A stretch of DNA of 64,000 nucleotides from Phoronis australis. Its lineage: Eukaryota > Animalia > Phoronida. The notes beneath the pieces are model-generated. The model saw only the letters and a program-made list of their open reading frames with translations. It had not been told where the DNA came from and ran no database searches. The stretch is from the NCBI GenBank assembly GCA_002633005.1, contig NMRA01000191.1, positions 364,466 through 428,465 on the forward strand, written 5' to 3'. Within the stretch, counting starts at the first letter, position 1. Each line of letters starts with the position of its first letter. Of this stretch, positions 2,357-54,900 are shown in pieces. The position numbers and the translations under genes are program-made.

Positions 2357-4736
2357 TCAAAATGCTTTCTCCACAGCTTGTAATGCCTGAGCACAAAGAT
2401 TGTCAAGTTGACCATCTCCACCTGAAAGAAGAAAATATTAACTAAATAAATAAATAAACAAGGTACATAATCAACAATCACCAAGTTATCATTTTAATTT
2501 TCAGACACACTACCCAATTATATACTTCATGTCAAAAACTCTTGCAGAAGATACTTGAAAGTGAATGCCAGTGAAATCACATGTTGCACACAAAGTACAG
2601 CGATATCTTGTGATTACTTGTGTCATCTCGTCCAAATCCCACGAAGAAGACAGCCGTGAGATCATGTTGTAAGAACGCCACTTAGTGAGTGAGCAGGCAC
2701 CCACTTTGTTGCTTTTGGTGCACAAATGTGGTGACCTATGGAGGCAGACTTACTAAGCTTGGGTGTAAATATAGACATATCAACAGCTCTTTTGAAACCC
2801 TGACCTAACTTTTAAACTTGAGAAGAAAGAAATTTATAGCAAATGCCAATAGTTAATTCAGTGAGATTGAAACATGTTACAAACTGATGTGTTTGTGTCT
2901 CTAAACACTAACAATAAAAACCAAAGAAAATTTTTGAAATCTGGCACGAGATAAACATTACGCCTATTATCAGTAAGGCATTTCATTGATTTGTTGCAAA
3001 CTAAAACAACAATGCATATCAGTTTGTGAGTGCATTTAAGCAAGCTCCATGTAGTAACAATCTTTGAAAGCACTTTGGTCCATTCATTTTGGGGAGGAAC
3101 CGTTATATTGTAGTTCATAAATGCAGTGGATTAGCATCCTTACTAACTCCTCATAAAACTATGGAATCAATGGAATTCACTCATTGCTTCAACGGTGTTT
3201 CCTGTGGAGGTTTCTTTGGGACATTTTTCTCAATTTTGTGATATCTGAAAGGACCAGTCAGAAGCATCGCTAGATTTTTCTGATAGTAGCTAAACCGTAG
3301 ACGAAGTGAACCTTTCCTATTACAGCATGTCTTAAAAGCCCATGATAGAAATGACAGAATGAGGGTGTTCCTGGCTGCAATACAAGCTTACAAAAGAGTT
3401 CCACTGCTTCTTTCCAAAAAAAAACTGAGGTACTTTTTGGGCAGAAAACCACATCGCTAAAATGAATGTGTCCAAAAAAGTCCCATGATGCAAGGAATTT
3501 TAACGAAGCTAGTGTCTATCAGCAATGTCATGTGACTTACCATAATCCAGATCCCTTATATCACATTTGAACACCTGTTCTCCATTTACCCACAGTTCAA
3601 CAGCATTCCAGTCTTTGATTGGCTTGTATTCAACTTGATGACCTTGTTTTGTCAACACAGCTGGAAAAATTAAGCATATCGCATATTTTGAATGAAACAG
3701 AAAGTGTAAAGAAAACTTCTGTTTTTTCATTAACCAATGTCTTCATATGGCTGTTTTTGCACAAAAAAATCTAAAAATTCTATTTCAAACTTTAGTGTGT
3801 GAATTTTTAAAACATTAAGAAATCCTAGAAGAGTTTCATATGTATGGAAAATTTTAAAATAATGGCGATATGCTGCAAGCAGCGATTGTGGTGCAGCTTC
3901 AATATGCCAAGCACTAATCAGTAGCCAAGTTTTGACAAAAACACTTGAAATTGTTAAAGGTAACTGAGTCTCTTAATTGTATCTTGTAAAACATCAAAGA
4001 ATGTTAACATAATCTTGGTGCTGCCTATGGAATTTTTGCCAACTTTAACTAATGCATCAATTTATTATCAGCAGATATTAAAAACCTTCCATAAAAAGTA
4101 AATTTTTTGCCTGTGTCCCTAAAAACTACTATACCCCTGCTTACCATTAAACGTACAAACTTTTGAAATTAGACCACTTTCGTATTGTCATGAAACTGAT
4201 CTCAAATTGCTCTTTATATAAAGATTGAAGATGATTTCTCAGCTTAGGAAGAATGCCAGTTAATCATTGCTTTAAAGCAGGCTCAACAAGCTGACTTGTC
4301 CTGGTGTGTCATTTACTTCCCCGGGCATGGCCTCAAGCAATAACCGATTGTCAGTGGTTTCCACGTTCAGAAACCACTTCCCAACTGAGGTAGGAAAAAG
4401 CCAAGACTATTTCTGTAGCAGTAGGTGGGCCAAATCAAAAGCTGTCTCTTTCAAAAAGGTAGATTCAGTTGTAGCATCTCAAGTGGCAGATTCTGAGAAA
4501 AATCACTTAAAGCAATCTATGTTTCATGGACTGAGCTTTTTCACTTACACCAGCTCAAAACGAAGCTTTCACACGAAGGTCAATTTGACCAATTTAGTCA
4601 AGCCTCAGACAGGACACATATGACTGCTGGACATTGACTCACTTGTCATTCCCTGTAGCCTCTCTGTTCTATGTTGCACTACACCACTGGATTCATATGG
4701 GCCGTGGTGTATGGAAACAGCTGCACATAACGGCAT
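2357..4736 (-). CDS. C10orf53: UPF0728 protein C10orf53 homolog, 92 aa; exons 4643-4736, 3541-3660, 2357-2421
   Basis: Spliced translation MPLCAAVSIHHGPYESSGVVQHRTERLQGMTTVLTKQGHQVEYKPIKDWNAVELWVNGEQVFKCDIRDLDYGGDGQLDNLCAQALQAVEKAF has the family motifs GPY..G.V.H...RLQG, DWN.VEL.VN.E.VF.C.I.DL..GGDG.LD.LC. GT-AG introns, phases 1/1; minus-strand AATAAA near 2295. Confidence 0.9.
4185..4320 (+). repeat. Ancient diverged interspersed repeat, copy 1 of at least 4 (others ~35040-35165 minus, ~36600-36722, ~47880-47955)
   Basis: Shared blocks TGAAA.TG.TCTCAAATT ... GAACTGA.AGTTCATTATT ... CAGG.TCAACAAG.TG.CTTGTC...G.GTGTCAT, aligned by eye. Confidence 0.6.
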
Positions 4737-27200: not shown

Positions 27201-28125
27201 AGCAGCAAAATTTGTTCTGAAATTCGTTTTTCGGTATTCTAAAAACTTATAATGAAGTGAAACCAGTTCCGATAATTTGTTGTGCCATGTACGCAACCTC
27301 ATGAAAGAACAAGTTGATAGAAGAATTGGCTAAAAAAGAAACTGGCCAATAGGTGACGCAATATTTCATGGTGCCGAAAGCCGACGCAGAAGATAGCTAA
27401 CCAACTTTAGCAGCAGAATAATGGTAGACCGCCATTTTTTCCAACACCGTTAAATAATTCAGTTTACTCAAGGAAGACTGTAGTTTTTAATGACACTAAT
27501 TTTGTGTCAGATTTTATCTTGCCACTTTTTACTCACAACGGTACAAAGCTGTATATTTAGTATACATCTTTGTACTGATTTTACGTGGGTAAAATATATT
27601 TAGTATACAGCTTTGTACCGATGTGGGTAAAGTATATGTAGTATACAGCTTTGTACCGATGTGGGTAAAATATATTTAGTATACAGCTTACAATGTACCG
27701 ATGTGGGTAAAATATATTTAGAAATTTTAGTATACAGCTTTGTACCAAGGCTAGTGCTAATTCAGCACCAACCGATATGAGATTTTCAGTAAAGTGAGTC
27801 TTAAAGTAAACTTGACATTCAACACTAAAAACAAGACTATAGCACAAAAACGTGTAAAACTGAATTGCAAGACTAATCATATGCCTTTGCAGAAAGCCAC
27901 CGAGTGGAACACCAGGGGGCGTGTCCACGCATGATGTGATTTTAATACCTTCCTTGCTTTTTGCCAAACTTGGTTGACTTTGTTGGCACGAAATGGGTTA
28001 TCCAGTTTGCTCCTATCATCTGGACCTAGGTTTTTAGTTTTTGAATACTTGCTAGCACTAAGATAACATGTCAAAATACACAAGATTATAAGCGACTTCA
28101 ACAACAATCCAACGGCAGCCGCCAT
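18244..28125 (-). CDS. LRPAP1: Alpha-2-macroglobulin receptor-associated protein (RAP), 340 aa; exons 27949-28125, 26636-26777, 22299-22439, 21304-21402, 20092-20324, 18646-18807, 18244-18312
   Basis: Signal peptide; NPFRANKVNQVWQKA; LKIQDDDEMNLKK...D.DGEKEA; D.RL.KMW..A..SGFS..EL..L.REF.HH..KI.EY; F.EPRV.EMW..A..ANFTEKEL.SFKEELKHFE.KI.KH; C-terminal ER-retention signal HSEL. Phases consistent. Confidence 0.93.
19263..19492. mobile_element. Short hAT-like MITE in an LRPAP1 intron
   Basis: TIRs CAGAGGCGGATC / GATCTGCCACTG; G-rich and C-rich subterminal tracts; TSD not intact. Confidence 0.7.
21497..21744. mobile_element. MITE (PIF/Harbinger-like GGG.CC termini), copy 1
   Basis: TIRs GGGACCCGTTCCAACAAAACTGACTTA / TAAGTCAGTTTCTTGGAACAGGCCC; a second, inverted copy lies at ~62929-63199. 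Confidence 0.8.
24350..24840 (-). pseudogene. Decayed HIRAN-domain ORF, probably carried by a DNA transposon, in LRPAP1 intron 2
   Basis: The minus strand, across a frameshift, reads IHGFHVYKEVWIPVEAGENL...NPADKYAASVFK..TRVVGHVPHKSSKTFAFLLNRG...GLQI. An adjacent terminal-like block GCCCTAATAAGTGCCCATGCCCCAATAAGTGCCC lies at ~24363-24397. Confidence 0.7.
25800..26077 (-). pseudogene. Decayed THAP zinc-finger ORF (transposon remnant) in LRPAP1 intron 2
   Basis: GGYTCCVSG/fs/CYNTS**DKEFSYYLFPKDQELC*TWVRHISR...LKVCSANFECGKKTYLGNCPTIFP shows the THAP pattern C-x-x-x-x-C...FP.D....W...I.R...VCSxHF...PTIF, with stops and a frameshift. Confidence 0.75.
27539..27747. repeat. Minisatellite, ~38-42-bp unit x~5, beginning with an inverted partial unit
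   Basis: Unit TATATTTAGTATACAGCTTTGTACCGATGTGGGTAAAA; the array starts with GGTACAAAGCTGTATA, the reverse complement of TATACAGCTTTGTACC. Confidence 0.9.
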
Positions 28126-28170: not shown

Positions 28171-30511
28171 ATGGCTTCTGAACACGGAAAGGAAAACCTC
28201 ACAGATTTGGGATTTAAGTTGGCACATGAAATGCCTGACGACGGTTTTAAGTATTGCAAGAATTATTGTTCTATTAATGAGGTTATTGGTGCGAAACGGT
28301 TAGAGGAAATAAGCACCTTTATGGAACTGTTTGCCGAGCTGGTCTCTCGTGATGAAGTTTCACCGAAAGACATTTCTTTCCTCAAGAAAATGCTGAGTGC
28401 TGCAACGCCGGGAAAATTCCAGCCATTGTTGAAGAATTATGAGGAAGGAATCTCTACTGCACCTACACAATGTGATGAAAATGAAGATAGCTTACCATTA
28501 GGCAAGTGGTTTGTCTGCAAAATATGCTATTCTGTTGGTTAGGACAGAACGTGTCCTAGGCAACACGTCGTAGCCCCTCGCCTCGGTTGGCCGGTGGCAT
28601 TCAGAGCGATGTATTTGCCTAAACGTGCCCAGGCAATGCTATACTAGTATTCCAGACACTAGAACTACTAGAAGCCTTTTTGGATTTCGCTGTTTAATTA
28701 TCAACTCTTTTATTTATCGTAAAAATTAGAAAAATTTTCAAAGATGTATTTCTGAATGTGTGAGAAATGATGGCCAATTAAAATTTAAATTATATATTCA
28801 TTTATATTGTCAAGACTGAAATTTTTCGAATCTGTTTGTGTCAAAAGTGACACAAGTGGCTGGTAAACAACTGTGGTAAACAATACATTTTCAGGACCTG
28901 GGATGGGTGGAATTTGGCGGTTAATTGTATTGAAGTGCCATGCATTTTCCCTTTTGTGGCTGCCTATTACTCGCTAGTTGGCTACGTGCCTAGCCAGCAC
29001 AACACGCAGGTAAAAGTCAGGTTTCATGCAGTAGCATGCACTTTAGCATTGGTTGATGTAACCTCGGTAGTCATTGGTTAGCATTACAACAACGTGAAAA
29101 AATGGTGGACTATGAACGATTTTTAGCCTTGTCACATGCAAGTGACATAGCAGCAACTATTTCATTTCTGCAGTAATGTTTAATAGATGCGTGCTTGAAG
29201 CACATACATGTACAATAAACACATATCTGGCTGATTTAACCGGTGTGTTATTCATACTGTATGAATACAGGACAGTATTGTCAACAAAAGTCATCGACAG
29301 TAGAAAGATGTACTCTGAAAAGGCGTAACCACAATTTCTTGGATTCACATTTCCTGAACATAAATTTTACTTAAGCACCGATTTGTCTGTACAACAAACC
29401 ACATTTACACTTGCTCCATCAGTCATGTCAGTTTGTTTGTTTAAATGCACTGCCTGTTGAGAATTCGACCAGCCAATCAGAAATGTCGGTGTAAAAAAAT
29501 TTCCCCATGGAAAATTAAGTGATAACTGTGTGCTGGCTACCACCTAGCGCCACGCAGGGAACCAGCGAGCCTGCATTACAGGAAATTTTCGTATTTGCAC
29601 CCATAGTGGTTTTACAGAAATCTGGGGAAATCACGGGTAGCTACAAGACAAAAAACAGAAATGGGTGGCGCTTATGCAAAAAGTTCAATGGGAAGCCCTG
29701 GTCAACTGCTTGTATTGGTCTTGGATGAGCAAGTTTATGAACAAAATAAAGGGACACCACAAAACTTGGCAATGTATATCTTGTAACATGCGGGAACTGG
29801 GGGAGTGAAGTATGTCCATGGTACAGAAGTACCTGTAACTGTACATTAGGCCAGTATTTTTTCTTTTGAGCGGGTGAATTTTTGGAATCTGGTGTGCGTT
29901 GACCTAGGAAGAACAGTGTTCTAGAACAACTTTGCGACATCAGTTTATCATGTGGTAATTCCTGTTTTTGAAGTTTTCAACAGTGGCAAGTTAGCTCTCA
30001 AATTTTTACACGTCATGTTGACATTCTTGGGATTGTTGCTGTCATTTCTGTTTGAGTTTGAATTTGACATTCATAATGGTGCTACGCATGTGTCTAAGCT
30101 TGTGAGTGTTTTAGAAAACTTGTGAAAAGATGTTAGATTTATGAGAAAAAAACACCATGCATTTTGTAGTATAGTCATAAATTACTAAGTGTAGTAAATG
30201 AAGTTAATAATTAATTGAAAGTTTATATGCTCTTTATTTTTTCAGATTTAGTGAAAGCATTTGATTATCTGGGAGAAAATTTGGGCAGGGACTGGAGACG
30301 GGTACTTCGGCGACTTGGGCTTAAGGAAAGTCAGTTTGACAAAATAACGGCTAAACATCCCTTTGACTTGGAATCGCAAATTCGTTGTGGACTGGAACTG
30401 TGGGCTTCAAAAAGGAAGGACAGTGACCTGTTTCAACTGGTGGTAAATGCGCTAAGAGAGTGCCAGCTCAATTTATATGCTAATGAGTTGGAGAAATCAA
30501 GATCTTTTTGA
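28171..30511 (+). CDS. FADD: FADD-like adaptor (DED + death domain), ~198 aa; exons 28171-28501 and 30246-30511
   Basis: Exon 1 is DED-like (IGAKRLEEISTFMELFAELVSRDEVSPKDISFLKKML). Exon 2 is a death domain (DLVKAFDYLGENLGRDWRRVLRRLGLKESQFDKI..KHP.DL..Q....L..W...LV.ALR.CQLNL.A). Two-exon, phase-1 structure as recalled for vertebrate FADD; donor probably GC. Confidence 0.82.
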
Positions 30512-36927: not shown

Positions 36928-39900
36928 TTACATCCACCTAGTCTGCAGGTTTGCGTCCACATGACTGGTGCTGGGGCAAGTTACCCTAGAACAAGACGTC
37001 CTACCTCGGATAAGGTGGGGGTAAACTGTCCCAGCATCCTCCAGGGGTAACTTGCTCTGGAGTAACTCGCAGTGTGGACGGCACTTAAGGGAAGAGGGTA
37101 GTTTATGGACAGAAAGAGGAGGGTGAGAACAGAGAAAGGGTGGAAGATAAAGAGAAGGGAAAATGAGAATAAGCACGAAAAATCACTATAACCACTTGGG
37201 ACACTCAAATCCAAAATCATCTATCAGACTCTTTGTCATCACATTTCAAGCATGATTTGATGATTCTTCAAGGTTTTAGTAGACATACCTTCTTAGGGTC
37301 ATCTGATGCAGACACCTGTGGACTCCACATACTGTCTCCGCTCATCCCACCCATCAAACTACTCGGTCCATTGCTGAAACCTTGGTAACTGAGCCCACCG
37401 CCCTGCAAGATTATGAAAACGGAAACATTTGAAAAAACAGGCGAGTCTTCCTGCAACACCTCACAAAAGAGACCTTAAACATAAGTGATTGAATTATATT
37501 CACTTAAAGCATGTGTAGTGCATAAGAGTTTACCAGCAACAGGCAAATAGACTGATTAAATTATACACCTTTGAAATGCAATATTTAGCTAATAATGCAA
37601 TAAGTTAACAATAATAATAGAATAGATGGCGTAAAAACTGATGAAGTTAATGTTGGGACAGCTACATTGATAACTATTTGCCAAATACCTGGTATATGTT
37701 ATCCACGTTTGAGCCGTCGTGATTCTCCAGAAACGTGGGCCCCATCAGTGTCCGACTAGACGGCCTGTCTTCAGGCGTGTGGGTGCGAGGTGGAGGAGTT
37801 ACGGACGACATGATGGACGAGGCCACAGATGACCCACTCCACTCAGTGCTGCCCTCTGTAGAACCAGAGAAATCAATTAATTTAACAACTAGAAGTACAA
37901 ACTAAAAGCAAATCTTGAAGAGAGCAGAATGCTGACTCAATAAATGTGCATGAAATATCCTGCGTTTGCTTTACAATTTATGCACATGCAACATGCCTTA
38001 TCGAGTAAAAATAAAATCTGATGATAGTTTAAAGTATTCTAGGGGTCAGTTAGGCTCCTTCACTTCACGTGGCAGATACAGAAACACTTACTTAATAAGG
38101 CATTTATCCTGGGAATCGCGGTTTTAAGACCAACTTTTTATTACATTATTGGAAAACAGGTGCAACATGCAATGCATTTTGCAAAACTCAGTGTGGAGCT
38201 TGATGTAATAAACTTAAGTCAGTGATGCCAAGAACAGTCATAACCACAAAAAGGTCATTCATACCTGCATTGAAAGACCATATGCCGAGATCCCCCATGC
38301 CTGGCACTGCTGGCTTTTTTATCGTCCTCTCAGTACCTATAGGTCGAGGGAAAAGGCGCTCCTCCAGGGCAGAGTAGCAAGACTGATCTGTGGGGGATGG
38401 GGTCTTTGTGCTGGGTGCGGGTGATGCTGCAGGTAGTCCCGAGATCCTTGGTGAGACATTGTCTGGTTTGTGATTAGAGCCAGGAAGAGACGAGAGAACT
38501 GTGGCCCCAGGAGGCACAGGTGAGACTCCCGGCCGAGGCACCAGCTGTGTAGCTTGACTATGGTAGAGACCACTACCGACGGGAAACCCTTCCGAGCTGG
38601 GCAACTGAGATCTCAGCGGGAACCCAGGAATGCCTGGCTGAGGGGGAAACCTTGGTCGACCAATCAAACCTGGTTGGGCAGGTGAGAACGCCGATGGCTG
38701 ACCTTGATTTGGTATGCCGCCGAACTGAGCAGGGTTGGGGAAGCGTGACTGGTTCATCGGGTGCGCGCTGCCGAATTGGAACCCACTACTCCGTGACATA
38801 AAGTCAGGTGCGTTGGGATTTAGTGTACTCTCAATGGTTGGTAACGTCATTGGCTGGTCGGCTTTGGTGTACTCATCGCGGGTCAGAGACATTCCCCGCG
38901 GAGAAATATGACTAGGGGTGGAGGTGGATGATCGTGGCGACGAGTTGGTTACAAACACAGGACTGGTCATGCTGCTGCCAGCTGTACCGGGCATGGAGTT
39001 CATCGAGACCAGCTGCTGTTGCTGTTCATACTCTTGGCCTGCTGATATGCGGAGAGGTCCCTTGGCACCAGGCGCTCGGGCCCAGCCATCCTCCATGGGA
39101 TGTGAGCTGGACAGTTGACCATTCAGAGGGAAGCCGGGTACACGGCTACCATCAGCGTTTGATGTATTGGTGTTGGGCGCCATGTTGGAAGCAGAACCGA
39201 CCACAGAGGGAGGAGCGGCATAATTCAATCGGCTGTCATCTTCTATCTTGCCAGGGAACACTGGGGGTATGCCCCTCCGCATGAAGGGAGAATATTCTAA
39301 GCTTGAAGAGACCGGGTTTTGGAAAGGCATGGGAATCAGAGGATTGGACAAAGATTTATCTTGTGTAACGGGCGCTCGACCACCTGGCGGCCCAATCGGT
39401 TGCGGGGGTAATGGCTTCTGCATACTGTTGGACATCGTTGCGAACACTGTGTTGGTGAGTAACTGTGTAGTTGACGCCGATGTCATGGAGACAGTTGGCT
39501 TGGCAACGGGTCCAAGACCGGGGCCCGCAGTCATGGGAAACAGCTGGCGAGAGACTTTAGTGGGGCTCTTTGATGGTGACACCGACGAAGTGAATGTGGC
39601 CGATTTTAGCGGCTGTTGTTGCAAAGGTGCTTGTGGCACGTTGCCCCATGCAGGCACAGTGGCCTGGCTCACAACAGGGGGTGACATTTTCGGATGAGCT
39701 ACGCTGTTGGCAGGTTCACTTGGACCGTTAGACATTGTTGCGGAAGTGGACGCAACAGTGGTGGTCGGCGGAACGAATGTGTCAATGGTCATGGTGCTCA
39801 GCGAGGGGGACTTTGGCTTGGTTTTCGGCATAATCTCGCCCAGATCTTTATCGGGATCCTTGATCAGGGCAGTGATCAGGTTACATGCCTGCCGTGTAGC

Positions 39901-42900
39901 GTCAGCAGAACCCCTATAAGGAAGCAGAGGAAGAGTCAAACAATGTATTCTAAGTTGCAGTTCAGATAATCTGTTTCTAAATATTTTAAGTTTCAGTAGA
40001 AACTGTCAAATGAAAAAGGTTTTTTCCGTGAAGAATAAACACCTTCTTTGCACTTTATTACTGACTGGAAAGTGTGAAAGGCTTGCTACAAAGACTTGTG
40101 TTAGACGAAAACACGTAATGTCTACCTTATCGTAATCGTTCTGTCGGTGGTTCCCTTCTGCTGTTTGTCGATTTCTATATGAGCTCCTGACACCTCTCGT
40201 ATGGCGTTGATATTACAGCCACTTCGGCCAATGACGCGACTGATGGCCGTCGCTGGAACTGTTACTTTCTTAGATCTGTCGGGACAGAACAGGTGTTTAG
40301 TTTTGATCACAAAAAGTACACTCAAAAGTACTTTTTTCTAATGACCAACCCCAAGCCTAATGAGAGACACAAGACTCGTTAGGTGGTGCTGCAGAAGGAA
40401 TGCTCCTCTTTTTAACAAATGAATAGACTGAGCAGAAAGCAGTTTATCAGCATGGGGCATCTATAGGCTAAGTGTCCCACGTGTCTACCTGAATGCAGGC
40501 ATTTATTTATATAGGTAAGACCGTTGTCACATGGCATCCCAGTAAAATCATAAGTCACCTACTAGCTTGCAAAATGAGTTTCCATGACTACATGATTATT
40601 TTCCTATTCCTCAGGTATTCCAGATTTTCCGTAGTGAATGCGAACCCCGTGATAGCCTTTCACAAGGACTGGTGGCATGAGAGCACCGTGCTGCCACATG
40701 GCTGTTTTAGAAGGCAACTCCACGTTGTAGTCATGGGAGGTTTTTTTTTGGTTCAGCAGAGCAAAATGAATAACGGATAGGGGAAATGTGAGTGAAAGAG
40801 GAGGCGCGGGCCCACAGTTTTTGGGGCAAATTTTCATTCTCACAAAACACACAGTCAAAACACTAGTTTCACGCATCACTACTTTCACCCTTGATCATCA
40901 GTCACATATCAACGACATGTAAGGAATTTAAGTCTTTTTAAGGAATGTGACAAACAGTGCTGACTGACTACCCAAGCTGAAGAAATATGAGTTGACCTAC
41001 TTTCTGACCACTTCTTTCCATCCCTCCTCTCTCTTCTGACCCTTCTTTGGACTGGGTGTGACCGCTGGTGATCTCAGGCTGGGGTTGTTACTGACCGCCG
41101 ACTTGACCGGGGTGAGTTTTAGAGGCGAGTCGAATGTATCCCTAGATATGAACAAACAAAACCAGTAAGACATTGACACCCAACAGATGTAAAAACTACA
41201 AATTATATCAATACTGCTAGTCAAATAACAACATGCAAACAGAAACTATTGCACCAAAGGCCAATCTATATGTCAAAGTTATTGAATAGCTTAGAGAAAG
41301 GGCACATAATTAGCAACAGTCATTCAAGCAACTACAGAAGTTTCACATAAGGTAGTGACAACCTATTGGAACTTAACTGTGCTGGATGGCAATTTGATGT
41401 TTTTTGTCGGACAAGAAAAACTAGTCTAACATAAAACACAGGTACAAGTTAACCAACTTAAACTTACAGCGAGCTGACACGACTGGACATCTTTTCATTC
41501 TTCGACTTTTCCTTCTTCGTTGGGAAGAGTGGCAAGTCTGGAATGTTTGGCGGAATGCCAAAATCATCCAAGTCTCCGATTCCTGAAAATTACCCACATT
41601 TTTTAATAATAGGCAACGTACAATACTTCATAAGTGTGGTTCTCAGGAAATGGTAAAATATTTAAACTGCCAATATACTTGAGTAAAGATCAAACACGTT
41701 CTTCTTAACTGAACTATGGATGGATAAAGTTTAACCACCATTCTCAATAACCGGAATAAAAATGAAAATGAATATTTTGGCTGAACTTCAGACATCATCA
41801 CTTAGAAAGCATTCATCAGCCACCAGTCTATGGCAATATCACGTCCATATCATTCCCTGCCTACAACAACACATCTAACAAAACTTTTGCGACGTTTAAT
41901 AGCCTACCCGTGGTGCTGATATTCTTATTGGTGTTCTTGACAGTGGCAGCCTTCTTCCTGTTCTCTTTGTTGGCCTTGTTTGAGGACGACTTGGTAGTGG
42001 TGGTGGTGGTGCTGTTACTGTTGCCAAAGCTTGATGTAGTTGTGGTGGTGACAGTTTTAGTGCTAGACACTATGACTGTATGATTCCCACTACTGTTAGG
42101 ACTACTGCTGGTGGTGGTGGTGGTGGCTGTGCCGATCATGGTGTAGGGGGAGGAGGATGGTGGGGCGGAGAGGGGGATCTCGGCAGGTGCGCGCTCTTTT
42201 TGCCGCTTATTCTTTTTGTTTCTGCTCTTCGTCTCACGACTGCTGGCGTTCTCATTCTCTCCGTTCTTTCTGTTATTCAGGTTCTTGTTTTCATTTTGCA
42301 GAGGCTCTGGAAATAAGAACAAAAGACGTGAACAAGTCTGCAAGGGCGGGCATGGACCAGCAGGTGGTAGAATGAGAAAGTATGAAAACAGATCTGTGAA
42401 AAAGCAAACGGAACAAAAAATAATACAAATGAACATGAACCCGTTTCCATGCTTTCAACGACTGTATTAACGAGGCCACTTTCAGATAGGAAAAAAATTC
42501 CCTAGCAAATAAGCAGTCACAAAGTTATAAATTTTTGGACTATTAACTGAAAAAGTGCAAAGCAATAACTTTTCTTCCTTCATAGATTTCAGTTTGTGTT
42601 CAGATTGATGGTATCAACTCACCTTCAGCTTGCACAGAAATGACAGTAGAACTCTTGTCATCCTCGACAGGTATTATGTCTGTCTGTTCCACTAGATCCA
42701 CCTCGTCCACTTTGATGTCACCAATATCATTCTCATCAGGCTCAGGGGACGAGTTCTTACTGTAAAAACAAAGTTGACAAGTGTCGTCACACTCTAGTTA
42801 ATGTGGACGCGGACTGACACGGACATTGATGAACCACCGTTGCAAGTAACAACCTGAATGACGGACTTTCATTTACCTTTAGCTTGTGTCACATTACCGC

Positions 42901-45900
42901 AGGCACACTACTATTCCTGTAGGTTCACTCATGTCCCAAGGCCATGTTTGACACAGTAAACAAAATTGCCACGGGCAATAAAACAACAACAGATTAACAA
43001 GCTTTCCATTATCCAGGGATCCCTCTACAGTGCTCTTTATTTGAATAGAGCACATTAACGGAGTTGTATTCTGCATTTTATGCAGATTCTCATTCACTTG
43101 CTAGCATCCATCCACAACTAAGATCGAACTCAGATGAGTATGTGTCATATTTGTACAATGCTAAAGTGTCAGCTAGTAATGTCAGGATTTCAAACTGGGT
43201 CTCCCAAATAGAAGTCTGGAGGACAAACCACAGATCTACACAACGATCAGAGGGTCAGCTTCTACTTGAACTGGTGAACATGAGAATGATTTAGGATGCT
43301 CATAACACAAACTTGTTGATCAACTATGGACCAATATTTACAACAGTTTGCTATTGCAGACAGGGGCCATTTTAGTACGTGAATAGATAGAAAACATAAA
43401 GATATTCACCATAATTTGTGGAATGAAGGTACCTGGAGTAGTGTTTTAAACAACAGAAAATAAACTTAACAAGAACAACAAAATCCATGTACATGTTTTG
43501 AAGAGTCCACATTTATGGTGCTCCTCTTTAAAGCCATGGAATTGGTTGATTGAATTGGTGCCAAAAAAAAAACAGACAAAGATGATGGCACTATGCACCC
43601 ACATATAAATATGTGGGCGCTTAATACTTATGAAATGACTAATCTCTCTAAAGTTTAAACTTGGTGCATAGGTTGCCAAACTCAAGACTTTTCCACGTGG
43701 CTAACTGACTGCAAACATTAAGGACACAGCTAGGACCACTGCTCCACCAGTAAATCTAAATCCCCTCACTATGTGAGCACCCCCCCTAGTAACTGCTCCA
43801 CGTACCTGGCTTCCTTTTCTCGTTCCTGCTTCTCTTTCTTCTTCTGCCGTTTCTTCTCACGTTTCCTGGCGGCAGCCGCCCGCTTACTCTCCTCCTGTGT
43901 CCGCTCGCGCTCCAGCTGCTCCAGTAGGAACGAGGCGTTCTTGTTGGCCTCTGCTGCCTGACGGTCTTTGGCGTGCACAATGATGTCCATGCATTGGTGA
44001 CATTTCTTAAGGATCTCCTGTTGAAGGAAGAAATTAGAAGTGTATTAAGAAGGTTGAAGACACCGAGGTATCCTATGGTAAACTGTTACAATTTTAGACA
44101 CCACATGGACACATGAAATTTTATTTTCTCATACCAAAATGAGGCTTTGCATTTCTAAGTTCTGTAATTCTTTGAAAAACTGGGGGCATTCACAACAATG
44201 CTTGAAGCCCTTGAAAAGTGAACAAAAAATGTAATTTTGACAAATATTTTTGGTCCCAAATTGGTGAGATTTTATCCTATCACACTTTTTCACACCCAGC
44301 TTAATGTCCTGCCCAGAGTTTGCACAAATTCACTACTGGACAACCCCACATTACGCCTAATGACCACCTCCCAATTTGTGTTTGTACTTGATAGGTTCAA
44401 GTCTGAAAAAACACTTTTGGCATTACCGTTGAATGGGATGCACTCCTAGAAGTTGATAGCTTTGGCCAGAGTGACGAAGAGTCAAAAATTTTGCTGTTGT
44501 CGGCGAGACAATTGCTGAACCAAGGATGGTAATTAAATATACTTAAAATACCCAGCCAATTATCAAGTGAGGTTTGGGTCACCATTAGAGAATTAGAGGG
44601 AGGCAACTGGTTAGATTCCACACTGAGTCTGATTTCAAAAGATCACCCCCTTTCTCGTCAGTAATGTCATTTCAACCTGAACAAGTACACGATGAGGCAC
44701 TGAAAGACCACATGACACATGCACTAAAGTGTATAAAACTCCCATGATAATATTCATGTATTGACTGGCAATTCCAGGGTCTCCAGTAAACTGCAGATTG
44801 TAGCCTGTTACACAAATATCTAATGTTTAAAAAACAGAATATGAGTGCTTGCCTTGCTCAACACATGACCATATACATGATGTACACAACACAAGTGTTC
44901 TGTTACACCGCAGTAATACTGAGCAAACATGTACAACCCACATGAAAGCTACGTAGGTTGCATGCATGGAACTGGAAAATAGACCTGGAAAATGGTGGGA
45001 ATCATGGCACTGTGGATGTTATACTTATTGAGCGATCTTAACAATTGAAAAAAGGTTTTATTATTGACTCTGTAAAATTCCTAGTAAACAAGCCATGGAC
45101 TTCAGTCCTTAACATTTGACTGTCACAGACACCAACGATGTGCAATATCAATTAAAGCCAGGAAGTTCATAGAGTTACTTGGCTATCATGACTAACAGCA
45201 TATGCCATGAATAAAAATCGCATGACTGCGGGTTTTACTTAAAAGCAAAAGACCTCCACAACTGTGGTGTGGTTACTGCAAGTTCTACAAGAAAAACTGT
45301 ATACACAGCGATAACAAGGCACTGGAATTGTGATCAATAAAATCCGTGATAAACAATAAAGGCTTGGAAAATAGCATACATGTCTCTGATAAACATCACT
45401 CAGCAATATGGAATGTGCACAAACGTCCAGAAGAGTTGTCAGATACTGACTGACAGTGTATTGACCTAGTGAAGTGCTGCTTAGGACTGTGTAACAAGTT
45501 GAACTGGAACTCAGCACAAGGTCATGTATCTAATGGGGATTTTTGTTGACTGAATGTGACATCTGTGGAATGCCAAGAATTAATTTAATTTGAAGACTGC
45601 AGCAGCAGATTGATAAAACTTGCCACCACACCAAATTTACAATCAGGACATACCAGATTATCAGGTTACAACAGGAAAGAAGTCATTTGAAATGGGCAAA
45701 ACCAAAAATATACAGCTATTTTTTCATGGCTAAACAACAGTCTCTCAAGTAAGAGAATAACAAGTAAAAAACACTTAGCCTAATTTACTAAAACAGTTCA
45801 TCACTTTTGACAATGATTTATGGCAACAGGTCTAGACATGTATTTTTAACATAACCAGTCCCTCATATGCAGGCTTATCAGACAGTCATTGGTAAACACT

Positions 45901-48900
45901 AACATCAAATACTGAAATACTAAGTGAAAACAGGGATCAAAGTGATACAAACTATTAATTAGTCAACCCAAAACCATAACTACAATTCCAAACATAGACA
46001 AAGAAGCCAGCTTAACTGAGCAAACTCCTAAAGCCAAAATGTAACAGTTCCTCAAACATAATCTTATCAGACTGTAATCACGGAAAACCCCAACATCAAA
46101 TACAGTTTATACATATGACAAACCCATAGTCATGATGTTTGTCATACATGACAACACACCGAAATATTCACCACTCGAGGCAATATTCACTTCCAGTCAA
46201 CAAACTCATCTCTATTTAAATAATACTACAGCCCACTATACACAGGAAAGGTCAACAGAAAAACCACCTTTATCTACTAGATTTTCATTTTTATTTCTAC
46301 TATAATTGCCATAAATTGCTCTATCTACAATAGTAATGCCCAAGCTAAAACTAGAAGCATATCAAATAACAACCACATAGATATTGATTTTCAACTGCTA
46401 GCTCAGAGCATCGGCCATTCCTTTGACCCACACTAAGGGAATGTAAGCTTCCTACTCCCAACATCAGTCAGCATGCCAATAACTGAGTCACTTACTTTCT
46501 CGGTAGAGCTCCTGCGCATCTGAGCGAAAATCTCCTTGACTTTGCGGCAAATCATGTTGGCTAACCACCAGTTAATAAACATTTACTGTCTAAATCATCA
46601 CACACACAAGACACTCTACCAGCTACACACTACACTACACTGTACACTGGCTGTGGCAGTTTCCCTCCCTTTATGCTGACAGGTTTGTTGATACTGTGAG
46701 TTCCAGTCAACACAATGGGGTCATGTGACCTCAGCTACAACTGGATCCATATCTGTCCAATGGGAAGGATAATTTGAGCTTGATAACACTGTGGTTCTAT
46801 TGTTAAGGTCAGTGTGAACAACTTCTGGCAGCCATTCAATAGGTGATAATGAGAGACAAACTTCCCAGTTCAAGTTAGTCATTGGTGGTTGCTCATACCA
46901 CTGCTGTGACCTGGTTCTGACAACAAAAACTGTGGGGATTTCACTGTGGGTAGATTGTTGATAAGAGAGATTAAATTGGAAGCAGGCTGTGGCTAACTGA
47001 CAAAAAGGTATGAAACTGAAATACAGGAACTAACCATGCAAGATAATTTGACACAATTCAGGGGCAAGTGACTGTAAGAGGGTATTTTAAAGACTTTTCA
47101 TCCTTTCAAGGTTTGATTTTGCACAGCTGGCAAATTGTCTTTTTAGGTTTTTGTATGATCTTAGCATGCATCACATACTAATTAACGTTGCTTCAGCAAA
47201 GAAACATGTCATAACAAATCCCATGACATGTGCCTTTTTACACAACTTAATATACTTGGCTAAGTTTCCCAACTGTTCATGTATTACATGGCCTAGCATC
47301 ATAACCTGTTAGTGATGGACATTGCCTCTTGAACTAACACATTAAAAGCAGAACACTTCATGCTGTTTTCAACCAACCCACATATTTATGCATGTTTTGA
47401 GTTCCTTATCACCATCCAAAAGGTTGTACTAAGAATATTGTGCCAATGAACTTCTAAAGCAGCCACAAACCTTATTTCCATCACAAAAAAACATCACATT
47501 TAGATCATTTACCATTATGAAATTGGCCTCGAATTTTTCCTAAAGTACACTCACTATTCGATGCTGCCTTCGCCCTACATTTGCAAACACTAGACCCACT
47601 TTCCTAAACTTCTTTGGTCGTTTTAAATTTCATGGAGTCTGTGAAAACTTTTCAATAAGCATTACATTAGCACAGAAATTACAACAGAAAATTATGCAAA
47701 TCAGTCGATATTTTTACAGCAAGATAACCAAGAAATGAAACTGGTGATAATATTTAATCAGTTGTATTTCTTACATCAAGGGTGAAACAAACATAAACAC
47801 GATTTTTACCTTCTTTAGCTTAACTGATACAAAAAAAACAGCCTCGGGGTTCAGGTGAACACTTGAAAATATGATTTTTAGGCTTGAAAGGAACTGATAG
47901 TTCATTATTGCGTGAGAACAGGTTCAACAAGTTGGCTTGTCAAGGCAGGTCATCTTGGGTACCAATCATGGTCTCCAAGCAGTAATGAACACTCATTTCT
48001 CCAAAAAGCAACTCTCAACCGAAGGAGGTACAAACTGTGACCAATTGCGTAATGATAAAAATGTTTTTGACGTAACGTGGTTGATGGACAGAGTGTTCAT
48101 AGTCCGACTTAAAAAAGCAAATGAACACGCAGTTGAAACCAGTAGGAAACAGACAGCCAAATATGAAACCTAACATGGCTACCAAATACAAAAAAAAATA
48201 GCCAGCAACTGAAAAATACTGACGACACCCGATAACAAAGTGACCATCAAAGACCATATGTGAATAGTAGACAACTTGAGAAATTATAAACAGAAACTGT
48301 TACTTTGTTGACAGGTACTATTCATAAATTTTCACACACAAGAAATTCTTTACAAATCATTAATCTTGCTGAGGTTAACAAGTGAGTCTATTTTTAAGTT
48401 TATGGGTCACAGAACAGATTGTCATGTGACAGGCTGATAAGTGTTGAGGTGAGCCAACACCCAGTGCAAAGATTTCAGGACTAAGGAGAGTGTATACATT
48501 TCCAGGCACAATTTCTAAACACTCTACTGGTTGTTTGCATTTCAAGCATGAAAAATTCATTATTAGGCTTTCCTTTTCTTGCAAAAGAGATAAACTTCAA
48601 ACACTGCGAGTCATGCATGGAGAATCAAAAACAAGACAGTGATTCTTATTCTGGACATGCTGTAATATTGTGCAAACTACAAAAACCTACGATATTCTAT
48701 GACAATCCTGTAAAGAACTTGGTTGATATTCAGATAGGGAAAAAAAAATGCATCTATGGGGCACAATTGAACAGTAGTCAACTTTGTCCGCAAATTAATG
48801 TCACCCTAGAACCACATCAGTCAAATTTCATGACTATCCTTCAGTGAATTTGGTAAAAAATAAAAATGCCACTAGGAGGACTGGAAGTACTCGGATACGT

Positions 48901-51900
48901 CGAAAATTTACGTTCGCTAAAAACACATCAGTTAATTGCCACCACAATCTTTCACCAAAGTTGGTGGATATTGAGGCAGGCCCAAAAACGTGAAGTAGCT
49001 TAGCGTTATTTGGACCCATCTTCAGTAGGAGCATAACCCTCCAACTTCACGAATACCCTTCAAACTGTTTGTTACATAGAAAGGCAGATGCCAAAAAGAT
49101 GAACCAAAATACCAAAACTGCTTTTGGGGGATGCAGCCATAGTTGACTCCACACGGAAATTTATGGATTGCCTGGTCTGTTTGATAGGAACACACTTGTC
49201 AAATTTGATAGATATTTAGGCGCACACAAAAACTTTAAAAATTACCGCTGGGTGACACAGCAGTTGTCGAATCCATCCAAAAGCTTTTGTCATCCGTTGT
49301 ATTGTTCATAAGAACGTATCTGGCAAATTTTACAAAGATCTTGCAAGGGGTTTACGAGATACAGCAGCGGAAGCTAGACAGAGATGAGCTCAACATGCGA
49401 CCACATACACGTATGGCCCTAACTTCACATCACAACACCAGCATATTAACACAAGAATGCAAAAACAACAACTCTTACTTCTGTAGCACAAAACTAACAG
49501 TATTACAACACTGTAACTGGAACCAAACTTGGGACGAACCAATGATTTCACATGGTTGCTACAGACGTTTGACCAAAATAATGTATCAGAGGCTTTCTGA
49601 CAAGAATTCCAGGACTTTCACGAGCTTGCTATGGCTGTCAGAACAATGTATTATAATGAAAGTTGCTCGTCACTTCAGATTGTGTATGTTTTGGAGCAGA
49701 AATATCAGGCAAACAACTGGAACTATAAAACTCTTATAGCAGTAAACATAGAACGACAGTGAAAGTGGACAAAGATACCTTTGCAGTTAATACCATGGCA
49801 ATAAAGCGGGTAATGCAGTCACATAAAAAGATAATTAATTTGAAATGAATGCCGAACTTGAAAGCGAGGGACTCAAAATAGACCAGGAATGCTCGTCGTA
49901 CAGCAAGTTTCTTACGGGAATAGCAAGATCTCACAAGATCACAGGGGCAAGGGCGAGTATTTTGCCAGTAAGCTCGGAACCATACTTGCACATGCTAGCA
50001 AAATAGCTGCCACCGAAACGATGGGCTGGATTCCGTTCCATGAGAAAATATTTGTGACCGCAAATGTATCATGTCTTGCGTCTATGAAACGCAGCTAAGG
50101 TTTAAAAAACAAAAGTTTTGACTTCAAAGTCTAACAGTCACAGATCTCTGCAGCACGACCACAACAACGGATGGATGACTACAAGAACTAAACGTCAGTA
50201 CACCAACTAACGCAATCTGTAGTGATCGCCAAAATCAAGATGTAAATGGAGCACAGCTCACCAACACTAACCAGCTGTGAACACTAAACCAGACCAAAAA
50301 CAACCAACATCTCAAGTTCACATCACAGCGAGTATGTAACCCAAAACATTGACTTACCTTATCCGTGACGGTCTGAATGAAGCGCGCACACTCGGGGTCC
50401 GACGGGAACTGATTGACGTGTTTCACCATCCATTTAACCACCTTGACGTGGCCCTTGCGGAAAGCCGCCATCAGGCAGGACACCTTGCGGTTGTCCTGGC
50501 TGTCGATATCGGCACCAGCACTGACTAACAGTTGGACCACATCCAGATGACCACCTAGGAATGAACAAGAGCTACATAAAAGAGGATCAACAGTGAATTA
50601 TACACGCGTGATTCAACGTGAAATTAAGGATAGTGTAACGATAGTAAAACATGTGCAGCATGCAATGCAAAATAAACCAAGCAGAGACAAGAACGGGTGA
50701 TATTACGCTTTATTGCCATGCCAACTTCAAATGCATTTGTTGCCTACAGTATTACCATGAATATGTTTCTCGTAAAAATTCTTGAATAAACAACATACCA
50801 GTCTGAAAACAACAAAAGCAAATAAAAAAAATTACAAATGACAACATAATCATTTCCACCACTCACCATTGCACGCTAGCCAAAGAGGAGAGTTTCCCTT
50901 TTTATTTTTCACATCCACTGCCGCATTCCGGCTGAGAAGAAGCTCCACAAAGCGATAGTGACCCTTGTCTGCAGCGATGGTTAGCGCTGTGTCTCTCGAG
51001 GATGGCACGGGAGGGGCGTTGACATCGGCTCCCTTATCCAGTAGGACACGACCCACCTCCACATAACCACCAGAGGCAGCCTCCATTAGAGGAGTCAGAC
51101 CAGTCTGGAAACATGTACAAAGGATTAGGATGTAGTAAAGAAAAGTTCACCGACTGTTAACTGCTCATTAAACTGAAAATGCTTGATACTAGACTAAGTT
51201 CAGCATTGTTACCATATTATTTTAACTTTACCTGCAATGCTCCACAAGGCTGGGACATAGCTTAAGCTAGCACCCATCCAGAGAGCAGCAGAGAGACTAG
51301 CCCGCTTGCAATACAGAAACCAAAGTCAGTAACCGCTTGTTAGTCAGTCTGATGTCTTACACTGATTCCCCTGCATTCATTAACATGGATTCAGACAATG
51401 CTGTATCACATACTCTCGTCAACAACCCACCTTGGCACGGTGCTCAATATTGGCTTTACGGTCAACCAGCAGGCTGACGACCTCGTGCCGTCCCTGGAAG
51501 CAGGCCAGTGTCAGTGCTGTGTTGCGGTTAGTCTCGATCTGAGCGTTGATGTCACTGCCCATGTCTAACAAGAGCTTGACCGCCTGCGTGTGACCGTTCA
51601 TGGCCGCCAGCATCAGCGGGGAGATTCCCAGCTTACTACCAGTTCTACAAAGACAGAGGGGAGGGTGGAGTTAGACATTTTCACAGAAGGGTGGGTGTGT
51701 TAGTCATCCAGCGACTCTAGCAAGATGTTCTGCAATGAACAGCTTTTTACTTCAGCTCCAATTTTGAACTGTGTTTTTAGAAGAAAACTACTTTAGTCGC
51801 TTAAACAATACAACAGGTGAATATATACATAAATAACAATCTGTTCAGAAACGCTCCAACATGCAGCACAGTTGTGCATGACCTTCAAATGCAGCTACGA

Positions 51901-54900
51901 AAAGATCAAAATATAGCTCGACTCTCAATTTAGTTTTCACACAGAGTGACCAGCCAGTCAAGATTGTGAGCAGGGCATTACCTGGAGTTAATCTCAGCAC
52001 CATGACTCAGCAGGAGCTTGATGATGTTGACGTAACCACCAGACGCGGCAAGACTCAGTGGTGTGTAGTCGGAGACGTTGCGGTGCTCCTTATTGGCACC
52101 TCGGGCCAGCAGGAGTTCCACGACCTCGTAGCGACCTCCGGAACAGGCCAATGATAGCGGCGTATCCTTGGTGCGCTCCGACTGGGCCTCGATGTCGGCG
52201 CCATTTTCTAGAAGAATCTCGACAACGACCGAGTGACCAGCGGTGGCGGCAAGGATGAGTGGTGTGAAACCTGTAAGGATATGGGAGACGTGTTATTCTT
52301 AAAAGGTGGCAAAATAAGATTTAAAGCTATCGCACCATTCTAAATTGATAGGCGAAAGAGGGCATGGATTGAGGTCGAAATGAGATACAATTCTAACTAT
52401 TGACCAAAATTAGTTTATCGGACACATGTTATGACACAATGTGAGGTGGTGCCGCACTATAGTCCAATTTACTGGTTAGCGCTCAACGGTTAGCTAGATC
52501 CCTACAAACCTTAACAATATATTGTGGAAACATATTACACAACTCGTGAAATTGAGACTAACCTGTCAAATTTGATGAATCTGACTTGTTCTCAAAAAGA
52601 ACTAACCCGCCCAAGACACCTTAGCAACAAATGTTTCCCTTTCCTTCGGTGGCTGCATATAAGTTCCTCAATTTCCCCCATATATGCTTGATGTTTCAGG
52701 TAAAGTAACCAAAACACAAGAACGTACCCTTCTTGTCGCGATGTTCAATCTCCGCATTCCGACCAAGCAACAGCGTAACCAGGTCAGCATGTCCACCTGC
52801 ACAAGCTAATGTCAGGGCCGTGTCGTGATTGCTTTCCGTCTCCGCGTCCAGATCTACGAGAGGGTAGGAGGGTGGGGAGATGGCTGGCGAGGGGTTAGGC
52901 GTTAGAGGCGCAGACGACGAAGGGGTAAGCGACTCAAGAGAGGAGGTGGGAGCAGAGAGGGGTAATGCCGTGAAGCTGTTGTTCTGCAGCTGCTGCTGTT
53001 GCTGCAGCTGCTGTTGTTGCTGCAATTGATGCTGTTGCTGCAATTGTTGTTGCTTCAACTGGCTGTTCTGTTGCTGCAAGGCAAACATAGAGAATGTAGA
53101 AAGTAGTCATTCGAAACGAAATCACTCACAAAGAACGTAAGAACGCCCATAAAATATTGTTTGCTCTGAGATAGGCAAATTGGTGGATAAAATACTTATT
53201 TTTTACTTCGTATTGTAGAGAAACAATATTAAATGCTAAGTGGCTTTTTACAGCTGAAACATTTGTTAGAAAGCATCCTGGTGGTGCTGCTTTAGCATCC
53301 GTCTCAAGAAAATTCATGTTCAAAAATAAGGCGAGTGAAGTGTTCCAGCATTCCATGATTGTGCCATGTACAGCGACATTTGTATCATTTTAACATATAA
53401 TTATGGACTACCTGCTGCTGCTGTAGTTTCAGCAACTCTTTGTGCAGCATCAGATTAGCTTTCTTCCTTCGTTCCTCCTTGGTCTGGCCAGCCACGTGCT
53501 GCAATGAGGACGACTCCACCTCTTCCTTCAGCATCACGTTGGTCAGGTCGTCATCAAAGCACACCTGTGTCCGCTTATCATAGTGTGGCAGAGACCGCTT
53601 GGCCTTCTTCTTGTCACGACTAGCAATCTCCGGCGACAGCATGTTCTGCAGCTGCTGCTGGACATAGAGGTCATTAGACGCGTCGCGGTTCATCTCGTTC
53701 TTGAGGGCCTCGTGCAGCAAGGCCGGACGTGGTGTCTCAGCATTACTGGTGGCAGGTTCCGACACAAGCCCTTGCACAGTCTCACCATTCTCAGTCAACT
53801 TTTGCACCAGGTCCTTCGACTGCCGCGGATCCATCGCTGGTGGAGGTTCGACATCCGGCGGCAGGGGGATATCCACCTCCTGCATCTGCTGCAGCAACTC
53901 TGCCTCATTCAAATCTAACTCTTCATCCGTCTTGAAACCCGGTGGTAGCTCCACCACCTTACCCTCAATCTTGGCCTGAAGCTGGTCGTGCAGAGCAATG
54001 TGCAGTGGGATAGGCTTGCGTTTCTTCTCCTCGTTCTGCTGCCGCTGCACTGCCTCCAGCTGCTGCTGGTGCTGCTGCAACTGCAGCTGCTTCTGCTGGT
54101 ACTGCTGCCGTAGCTCTTGCAGCTTGTACTGGTAGTATTCTTTCTGCTGCTGTAGAAGCTGTTCCTGCTGGTGCTGCTGTTGCAGCTGCTGCCGCTGCTG
54201 CTGCTCTAGCCGCTGCTGTGCATTGATCAGCAGCTGCGTCTGCGCCTTCTCGTGCAGCTCGCGCTCCACCTTCTGCAACTCTTCCAGGATCTGTTGTTTC
54301 TTCAGGATCTGCTCCTCACGTGTCGTATTCAACACCTCTGCCTTGCGCATCATCTTGTTTATGAATGCTTCCAGCCGGTCGCTGGCCTTCAGCTCTGGCC
54401 GTTCATCCCCCTCACCGGTAAATGGTAGCGAGGAGTCTGCCTCCGTGTAACTCTCATCATACTCCTCATCAAACTCATCCTGATCTGAGTAGTTCTCCTG
54501 GTCCGTCGAGTCCGTCTGACCGTCGGGGTCTGTGCGCATCGACCGGCTCCGCTTCTTCACCATCCCATCTGACACGTGCAGGGGAACGTTGAGATCAGCC
54601 AGATTGATATGACCTTGATCACCTACAATAGGAAATAGTCAACTGCAATCAACACTTAAGCATTTTGCATTTAGAACCTTTTACATTGATTCACAAATAT
54701 GGAAGTTACCCAAATATTTATTTTTGTTTAAAGACAAATTTCGAACAACCAATTACTCTAGAAAAACATTCCATTTTTGTAATATAGATGATCACTATTT
54801 TCTTGGTACCTTCAACATGTAGTACAACGCATGCTTTTCATTTTAACAGTAATCGTCGAACTGAACGTTACACTGATGTTTAAAAATGACTTTCTCCAAT

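Follow-up and report, generated by a model that had tools for sequence, protein, structure and literature searches.

A candidate internal first exon and a predicted ankyrin-free Mask isoform in Phoronis australis

Can a Mask gene produce its RNA-binding half without the ankyrin repeats? This question is raised by a 64,000-nucleotide (nt) stretch of the Phoronis australis genome (contig NMRA01000191.1, positions 364,466 to 428,465; hereafter the window), which carries the greater part of a Mask/ANKHD1/ANKRD17 gene on its minus strand, with ankyrin exons as far as 50358 followed by exons for a long helix, a KH domain and a disordered tail. An initial annotation had proposed a promoter and a first exon within the intron that follows the last ankyrin exon. 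The core of that proposal is supported: reads splice the exon in frame to those that follow the ankyrin repeats, without any joint on its upstream side, and its predicted N-terminus has a match in a gene model of the annelid Capitella teleta. On balance, we regard it as likely the first exon of an internal promoter, with a predicted ankyrin-free Mask of 1058 amino acids (aa) that would bind RNA and serve as an adaptor in mRNA deadenylation.

The intronic exon and its transcripts

The family membership of the gene is clear from Pfam, which finds blocks of ankyrin repeats ahead of one KH domain (Ank matches on window frames 50850-51146 and 50235-50597, KH_1 on frame 40122-40337). The second ankyrin block is 94-96% identical to that of nemertean and mollusc Mask and 84-92% identical to others, a similarity that marks the source as a lophotrochozoan; a small tree with the window Mask gave no finer placement. 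The exons in question are as follows.

50358..50554, minus strand: last ankyrin exon of the long isoform, missing from the short form (Pfam Ank 36.2 bits; read joints 50867->50554 and 50358->44017)
46496..46689, minus strand: alternative exon, most likely a first exon, with a ~134-nt 5' leader and 20 codons (joint reads, depth taper; 5' end approximate)
46490..46495, minus strand: splice donor GTAAGT, in use (sequence and joint reads)
43806..44017, minus strand: first shared exon, long helix with a basic stretch (43867-43829) resembling a nuclear localization signal (NLS) (sequence and read joints)
42759-42623, 42306-41908, 41582-41468, 41141-41001, 40275-40126, 39913-38265, 37855-37689, 37402-37289 and 36377-36345 (stop), minus strand: other shared exons (one AG/GT-bounded open model)

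As the initial annotation had described, 46582-46496 on the minus strand reads as a 29-aa peptide, and the GTAAGT donor directly after it is in phase 0 with exon 44017-43806. It is the sole ATG-to-GT(A/G)AG frame of at least 5 codons in the right phase within the 6340-nt intron. A comparable frame of at least 29 codons occurred in 116 of 1000 simulated introns (11.6%; first-order Markov), and the frame is therefore weak on sequence alone.

The RNA data comprised about 18-19% of three stranded raw-read runs (X1, X2 and X3) and one contig set (X4), aligned to 42200-51800, with read joints listed only at three or more reads. X4 was taken as RNA by guess, though its contig is spliced, and X4 contigs can show presence but not absence. 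The predicted joint 46496->44017 was found in X1 (9 reads with 7 starts) and X2 (13 reads with 11 starts), as well as in one X4 contig at a depth of 83.8. The canonical joint 50358->44017 had 6 reads in X1, 17 in X2, none in X3 and no contig in X4. Short-to-long joint reads thus stood at 9:6, 13:17 and 0:0 in the three runs, beside a short-only contig in X4; the new joint made up 60% of the joint reads in X1 and 43% in X2, and was the sole joint in X4. All raw joint reads lay on the strand of the gene. The X4 contig (3592 nt) begins in the new exon, runs unbranched through the next three exons, and agrees in length with the short-form model plus about 350 nt of 3' untranslated region; X4 depth on the ankyrin exons at 51437-51646 was 12.3. 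The exon spliced in frame to the post-ankyrin exons is real.

The 5' end was mapped finely across 46380-47130. Depth begins at the donor, continues through 46561 without a step, tapers upstream and is zero at 46692-46769. No joint entered the new exon from upstream, and the only listed loose ends were those of the splice to 44017. No pile-up of read starts was listed at the 5' end; the furthest read ends lay at about 46687, 46689 and 46687 in the three runs, a spread of about 3 nt as estimated from bin mean depths. With read depth fading out near 46689 and no joint leading in from the upstream side, the new exon is most likely a first exon.

Transcription probably starts near 46689, and a second start near 46645 may exist in addition. 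The initial annotation had placed the start at 46640-46650, about 40 nt downstream of where the reads end. Its E-box and CCAAT motifs are present, and its TATA-like CATAAA (46675-46670) falls within the longest transcripts. The candidate promoter sites are as follows.

46720..46729, no strand assigned: GTCATGTGAC, E-box-like candidate site, 31-40 nt upstream of the outermost read ends (~-31 to -40)
46757..46761, plus strand: CCAAT, candidate, ~70 nt upstream of the outermost read ends (the window has 165 copies of the 5-mer)

The E-box-like site is a candidate target of MiT/TFE or USF factors. Its 10-mer is over-represented in the window (3 copies against 0.13 expected), and the E-box proves nothing because the other copies, both without promoter signs, lie at 48421 in an intron without reads and at 3527 at the donor of another gene's exon. 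Fly Mask increases V-ATPase expression independently of Mitf/TFEB (PMC5788473). A link of Mask to V-ATPase/Mitf biology via this E-box is speculation.

Start codon and the Capitella N-terminus

Both ATGs of the new exon had been annotated as lying in good context. This holds for the second (ATG2, 46555; CCAACATGA, with A at -3) and fails for the first (ATG1, 46582), which directly follows an in-frame TAA and so has T at -3, a weak context. The leader and the coding part are divided as follows.

46496..46555, minus strand: coding part from ATG2, the likely start, MICRKVKEIFAQMRRSSTEK (start context; Met-anchored match to Capitella)
46556..46582, minus strand: in-frame extension from ATG1, MFINWWLAN, in weak context and without a Capitella counterpart (TAA before ATG; non-synonymous read difference at 46576)
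46590..46598, minus strand: two-codon upstream open reading frame (uORF), out of frame (sequence; read difference at 46591 alters its stop)

The only listed read difference after Met10, at 46523, is synonymous. The leader at 46586-46645 carries a TG/GTGTA repeat; at 46598 some reads have an allele with 2 nt inserted, and another read difference abolishes the uORF stop.

The Capitella protein CAPTEDRAFT_219177 (ELU15000.1; 1081 aa) has a KH domain and no ankyrin repeat by Pfam. Its N-terminus, MISMRVNEIFHYL, meets the shared part at the same joint and resembles the window peptide as read from ATG2. Its sequence before the shared exon is MISMRVNEIFHYLSKEE, and 7 of 17 positions are identical to MICRKVKEIFAQMRRSSTEK of the window. 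The first 13 aa of the Capitella protein against window residues M10-M22 gave a score of 27; 172 of 100000 shuffles reached the local score (p near 0.002). Among 3013 intron 13-mers this window segment ranked first, and among the 61580 of the whole window it tied for second place.

At this joint 447 homologues were aligned, 349 of them canonical and 98 not, and Capitella alone matched the peptide. The next best score was 13 among 1066 13-mers from 62 other non-canonical upstream segments, and 7 among 45 N-termini. Capitella ends in Glu at the joint; 62 of the 98 non-canonical homologues end in Gln, as intron read-through does. Window and Capitella share 73% identity in the conserved C-terminal blocks of Mask, about as distant as the window is from several molluscs, and the new exon, if homologous, would therefore be old. 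Translation probably starts at ATG2 and the N-terminus is probably homologous to that of Capitella, which would make the isoform old. The 'hypothetical' Capitella protein is then probably a real isoform and not a split gene model. Translation of the full 29 aa, as annotated, is not supported, since the Capitella match starts at Met10; the TEK/TDK mirror noted at the joint is not conserved either, as Capitella has SKEE.

The predicted short product and its possible function

From ATG2, a single AG/GT-bounded exon chain predicts a product of 1058 aa; its joints below 42200 rest on the model, and among the remaining shared exons the read check covered 43806/42759 and 42623/42306 only. The chain includes the following domains and motifs.

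40126..40275, minus strand: first exon of the KH domain, with the GRSG loop in 40232-40218, continuing into the exon that starts at 39913 (Pfam KH_1 50 bits, cut-off 21.5)
38800..38823, minus strand: LNPNAPDF, PAM2-like motif (Pfam PAM2 14 bits, E 0.041, below the cut-off of 20)
38326..38343, minus strand: PIGTER motif, exact (sequence, in the disordered tail)

The ankyrin-less isoform of ~1100 aa with basic helix, KH domain and PAM2-like tail that had been proposed is thus recovered as a predicted 1058 aa with NLS helix and KH domain, the PAM2-like motif being sub-threshold. No Pfam Ank match was found in the Capitella protein, in four post-joint window frames or in the new peptide. The short product would be a truncated product of a member gene, predicted to lack the Yki/YAP-binding ankyrin repeats. 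GRSG is the GXXG loop of the KH domain and is the same in Mytilus Mask; KH_1 in the window reaches its 50 bits on one exon. The basic stretch RKREKKRQKKKEK (43867-43829) lies just after the second ankyrin block, by sequence the position of the NLS of fly Mask (PMC6861002). Of the 17 homologues checked, 13 have the PAM2-like motif or something close to it.

PIGTER was overlooked in the initial annotation and points to a narrower likely role for the short form, as the motif is reported to bind the NOT module of CCR4-NOT in human ANKRD17 (preprint 10.1101/2024.09.11.612445). It is kept in the window, Capitella, amphioxus, Xenopus, beetle and Nematostella. Nemertean and mollusc Mask proteins carry PIGGER or PIGVER at this place (P0262, P0258, P0255, P0261, P0257, P0286).

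In the literature, the ankyrins of Mask bind Yki/YAP and the NLS drives import, being essential for Yki import in flies (PMC6861002; a 2026 correction concerns figure images), and the second ankyrin block binds Notch's intracellular domain (Notch-ICD; PMC12309132). An ankyrin-free fragment of human ANKRD17 (1950-2603) binds CNOT1/2/3 via PIGTER (preprint 10.1101/2024.09.11.612445). In flies, microtubule defects are not rescued by an engineered Mask-KH-Only; the same paper states, as unpublished data, that autophagy requires KH (PMC8572007). Because the ankyrins bind Yki/YAP and Notch-ICD and PIGTER binds CNOT1/2/3, the short form would be a KH-guided deadenylation adaptor without scaffold function. 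The internal promoter after the last ankyrin exon would yield a transcript from about 46689, translated from ATG2; the protein would bind RNA via KH, recruit CCR4-NOT via PIGTER and perhaps PABP via the PAM2-like motif, and be unable to bind Yki/YAP or Notch, as both use ankyrins. By analogy with human and fly Mask, we give this set of activities about an even chance. Promoter switching would set the ratio of RNA function to scaffold function by tissue. More tentatively, an ancient internal promoter across distant annelid-grade lineages might split Mask into an ankyrin scaffold and a KH-CCR4-NOT decay adaptor, the latter being the main product in some tissues.

Deadenylation adaptors of the GW182/TNRC6 and Tob types carry PABP- and CCR4-NOT-binding motifs in a disordered tail. 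The putative working of the Mask short form is similar without homology, and its targets would be picked by the KH domain. With full-length Mask/ANKHD1/ANKRD17 the window gene shares the second ankyrin block, the NLS helix, KH and PIGTER; the short form lacks the ankyrins. The short human isoforms 2-4 and VBARP keep ankyrins and lose KH, whereas the window short form does the reverse (PMC10454556, PMC7473474). The Capitella protein is alike in having KH only, a Met-anchored N-terminus at the same joint, and PAM2-like and PIGTER motifs; its linker is three residues shorter, with a net charge of -1 against +4, and it was deposited as a hypothetical protein.

Mask-KH-Only of Drosophila and human ANKRD17(1950-2603) are likewise ankyrin-free C-terminal pieces, and they show that ankyrin and C-terminal functions are separable. 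Those are laboratory constructs, whereas the Mask short form is a natural transcript, and the ANKRD17 piece is a shorter part of the tail. Another parallel in gene structure is sAnk1.5, a short isoform made from the internal P2 promoter of ANK1 with a new first exon and a new N-terminus and without the ankyrin repeats (PMC10199891). In the Mask short form, too, a separate exon is spliced in frame to shared exons further downstream; the genes are unrelated, and sAnk1.5 is a 17-kDa protein with a transmembrane anchor, whereas the Mask short form lacks an anchor and keeps an RNA-binding domain.

Internal promoters that drop a domain are common, and the mechanism itself is not new. Literature searches, with most subscription journals and the model-organism databases outside their scope, found no natural ankyrin-less Mask isoform. 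One of two ANKHD1 reviews notes ten unvalidated human transcripts, undescribed there, and both call the KH role and isoform-specific functions largely unexplored (PMC10454556, PMC7473474). The window holds a real, abundant Mask isoform, predicted to be ankyrin-free and seemingly undescribed. A natural and abundant KH-only form suggests that the RNA half of Mask works independently. If Mask is split by an ancient promoter as suggested above, this would be its first ankyrin-free form in nature and a ready separation-of-function test of the KH half.

A different function was suggested for the new N-terminus in the initial annotation, that of a possible membrane or mitochondrial targeting signal. 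Such a signal, as in small ankyrin-1, would relocate the KH module of a real transcript and protein. In its favor, hydrophobic residues at i, i+4, i+7, i+8 and i+11 are common to window and Capitella, the window peptide has a net charge of +4 and a hydrophobic moment of 0.59, the peptide is predicted to be helical, and a start at ATG1 would add a Trp-rich stretch. The 20-aa window peptide has a mean hydrophobicity of -0.38 and eight charged residues; it contains no hydrophobic run of transmembrane length. The Capitella peptide has a net charge of -1 and a Glu conserved with the window, and the moments of the two peptides were reached by 1090 and 4622 of 20000 shuffles, not clearly beyond chance. 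The Trp-rich part has no Capitella counterpart and a weak start, and the NLS lies 50 residues downstream. Targeting thus remains unsupported and is an unlikely explanation. A mitochondrial presequence is a basic amphipathic helix without acidic residues; as such a presequence the peptide was rejected for its conserved Glu, the net -1 of Capitella and its moments.

AlphaFold models residues 1-75 of the Capitella protein as one helix without a hairpin, with a predicted local distance difference test (pLDDT) score of 76 over the first ten residues, and the canonical form as a short helix, a loop and a long helix, a comparison that discriminates little. The new peptide is accordingly predicted to be helical and, in Capitella, continuous with the long helix, a weak result; no PDB structure covers this region of Mask. 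We consider it an even call that the short peptide is mainly a start module extending the long helix. That it copies the canonical cap helix is an idea drawn from pattern likeness only.

The short form could also serve chiefly to damp full-length Mask, by competing for importin, RNA or CCR4-NOT or by pairing with the long form, and so reduce YAP/Yki import. In X1 and X2 the two forms are about equally abundant; the short form keeps an intact long helix and the NLS, which in flies is essential for Yki import (PMC6861002). Against this, the short form dominates in X4, which suits an independent role, and we consider chief action as a damper unlikely as well.

Limits of conservation and neighboring genes

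Several points weigh against an old, functional first exon. X3 had no new-joint reads, in a run where Mask exons are barely covered; the 5' end is supported by about 5 reads only; and loose parts without an explanation, too few to reach the listing threshold, occur in one read of X3 and as many as 4 of X2. The PAM2 match falls short of the Pfam cut-off, and all function is transferred from human and fly. Conservation amounts to one species and one gene model, and the 13-residue match was found post hoc. No short isoform appeared among 119 listed of the 564 members (186 read) of ten mollusc, nemertean and amphioxus clusters. Of 52 metagenome loci, 19 had the orthologous intron whole and 8 in part, and none of these introns held a matching exon; the whole introns were all at most 1.3 kb, and the ATG-to-GT test covered 19 of the 52.

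Conservation in related species, proposed in the initial annotation as a check, was seen in the Capitella N-terminus from Met10 and in none of the mollusc, nemertean or amphioxus sets or metagenome introns. Homologue, representative and cluster searches turned up the peptide in no further species, although short isoforms may be masked by clustering and few annelid annotations were among the matches. A search of the ESM Atlas with residues 1-60 of the Capitella protein gave no usable match. The best reading is a restricted distribution of the short form, perhaps annelid, on one species of support.

These limits bear on the view that the intronic start is lineage-specific or noisy, its RNA seldom translated well or lacking any selected function, and the resemblance to Capitella due to chance. 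Such a frame turned up in 11.6% of the simulated introns, a uORF and the weak ATG1 lie upstream, 1 of 447 homologues matches, and other lophotrochozoan isoform sets lack a short form. This view is nonetheless improbable, given that the new joint takes about half of the joint reads in X1 and X2 and is the only one in X4, that the match is anchored at Met and lies at the identical joint (p near 0.002), and a sole listed read difference after Met10 that is synonymous.

It is very improbable that the exon is internal, be it a 65-nt cassette from the TTAG acceptor at 46561 replacing 50554-50358 (annotated as a possible mutually exclusive exon with a junction 50867->46560), a recursive-splicing intermediate or an exon fed from upstream: the phase 1-to-0 cassette fits the frame, joints under three reads go unlisted and a few reads have loose parts, but no listed joint leads from 50867 or 50358 into the exon or uses this acceptor, X2 depth passes from 17.7 to 16.1 across 46561 without loose ends and is zero just upstream of the exon, and candidate acceptors have 5-13 pyrimidines in 20 against 13-18 in 13 of 14 real acceptors.

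Further observations were made on Mask genes. One homologue (P0041) has a 1160-aa KH-only Mask frame that begins at an internal Met of the shared exon and may be another short form or a fragment. Metagenome locus L002 (1-4166) is an invertebrate Mask with an intron of more than 4.1 kb at the same place, running off the contig end; that part holds no matching exon. In the window gene, long poly-Gln tracts occupy the linker between both ankyrin blocks (52696-54638, minus strand). Many partly matching reads, mostly from X3, fell on short intronic pieces at 43573-43624, 44108-44274, 47883-47917 and 49324-49362, which are dispersed repeats; the piece at 44108-44274 has inverted ends.

Elsewhere in the window, an exon of a UPF0728 family gene (3512-3742, minus strand) has a donor that overlaps a copy of the GTCATGTGAC 10-mer. 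A head-to-head pair consists of a RAP/LRPAP1-like gene at 28125 on the minus strand (Pfam Alpha-2-MRAP) and a DED and death-domain gene at 28171 on the plus strand, which we take to be FADD-like. Their likely start codons are only about 46 nt apart, and their leaders or promoters must therefore overlap.

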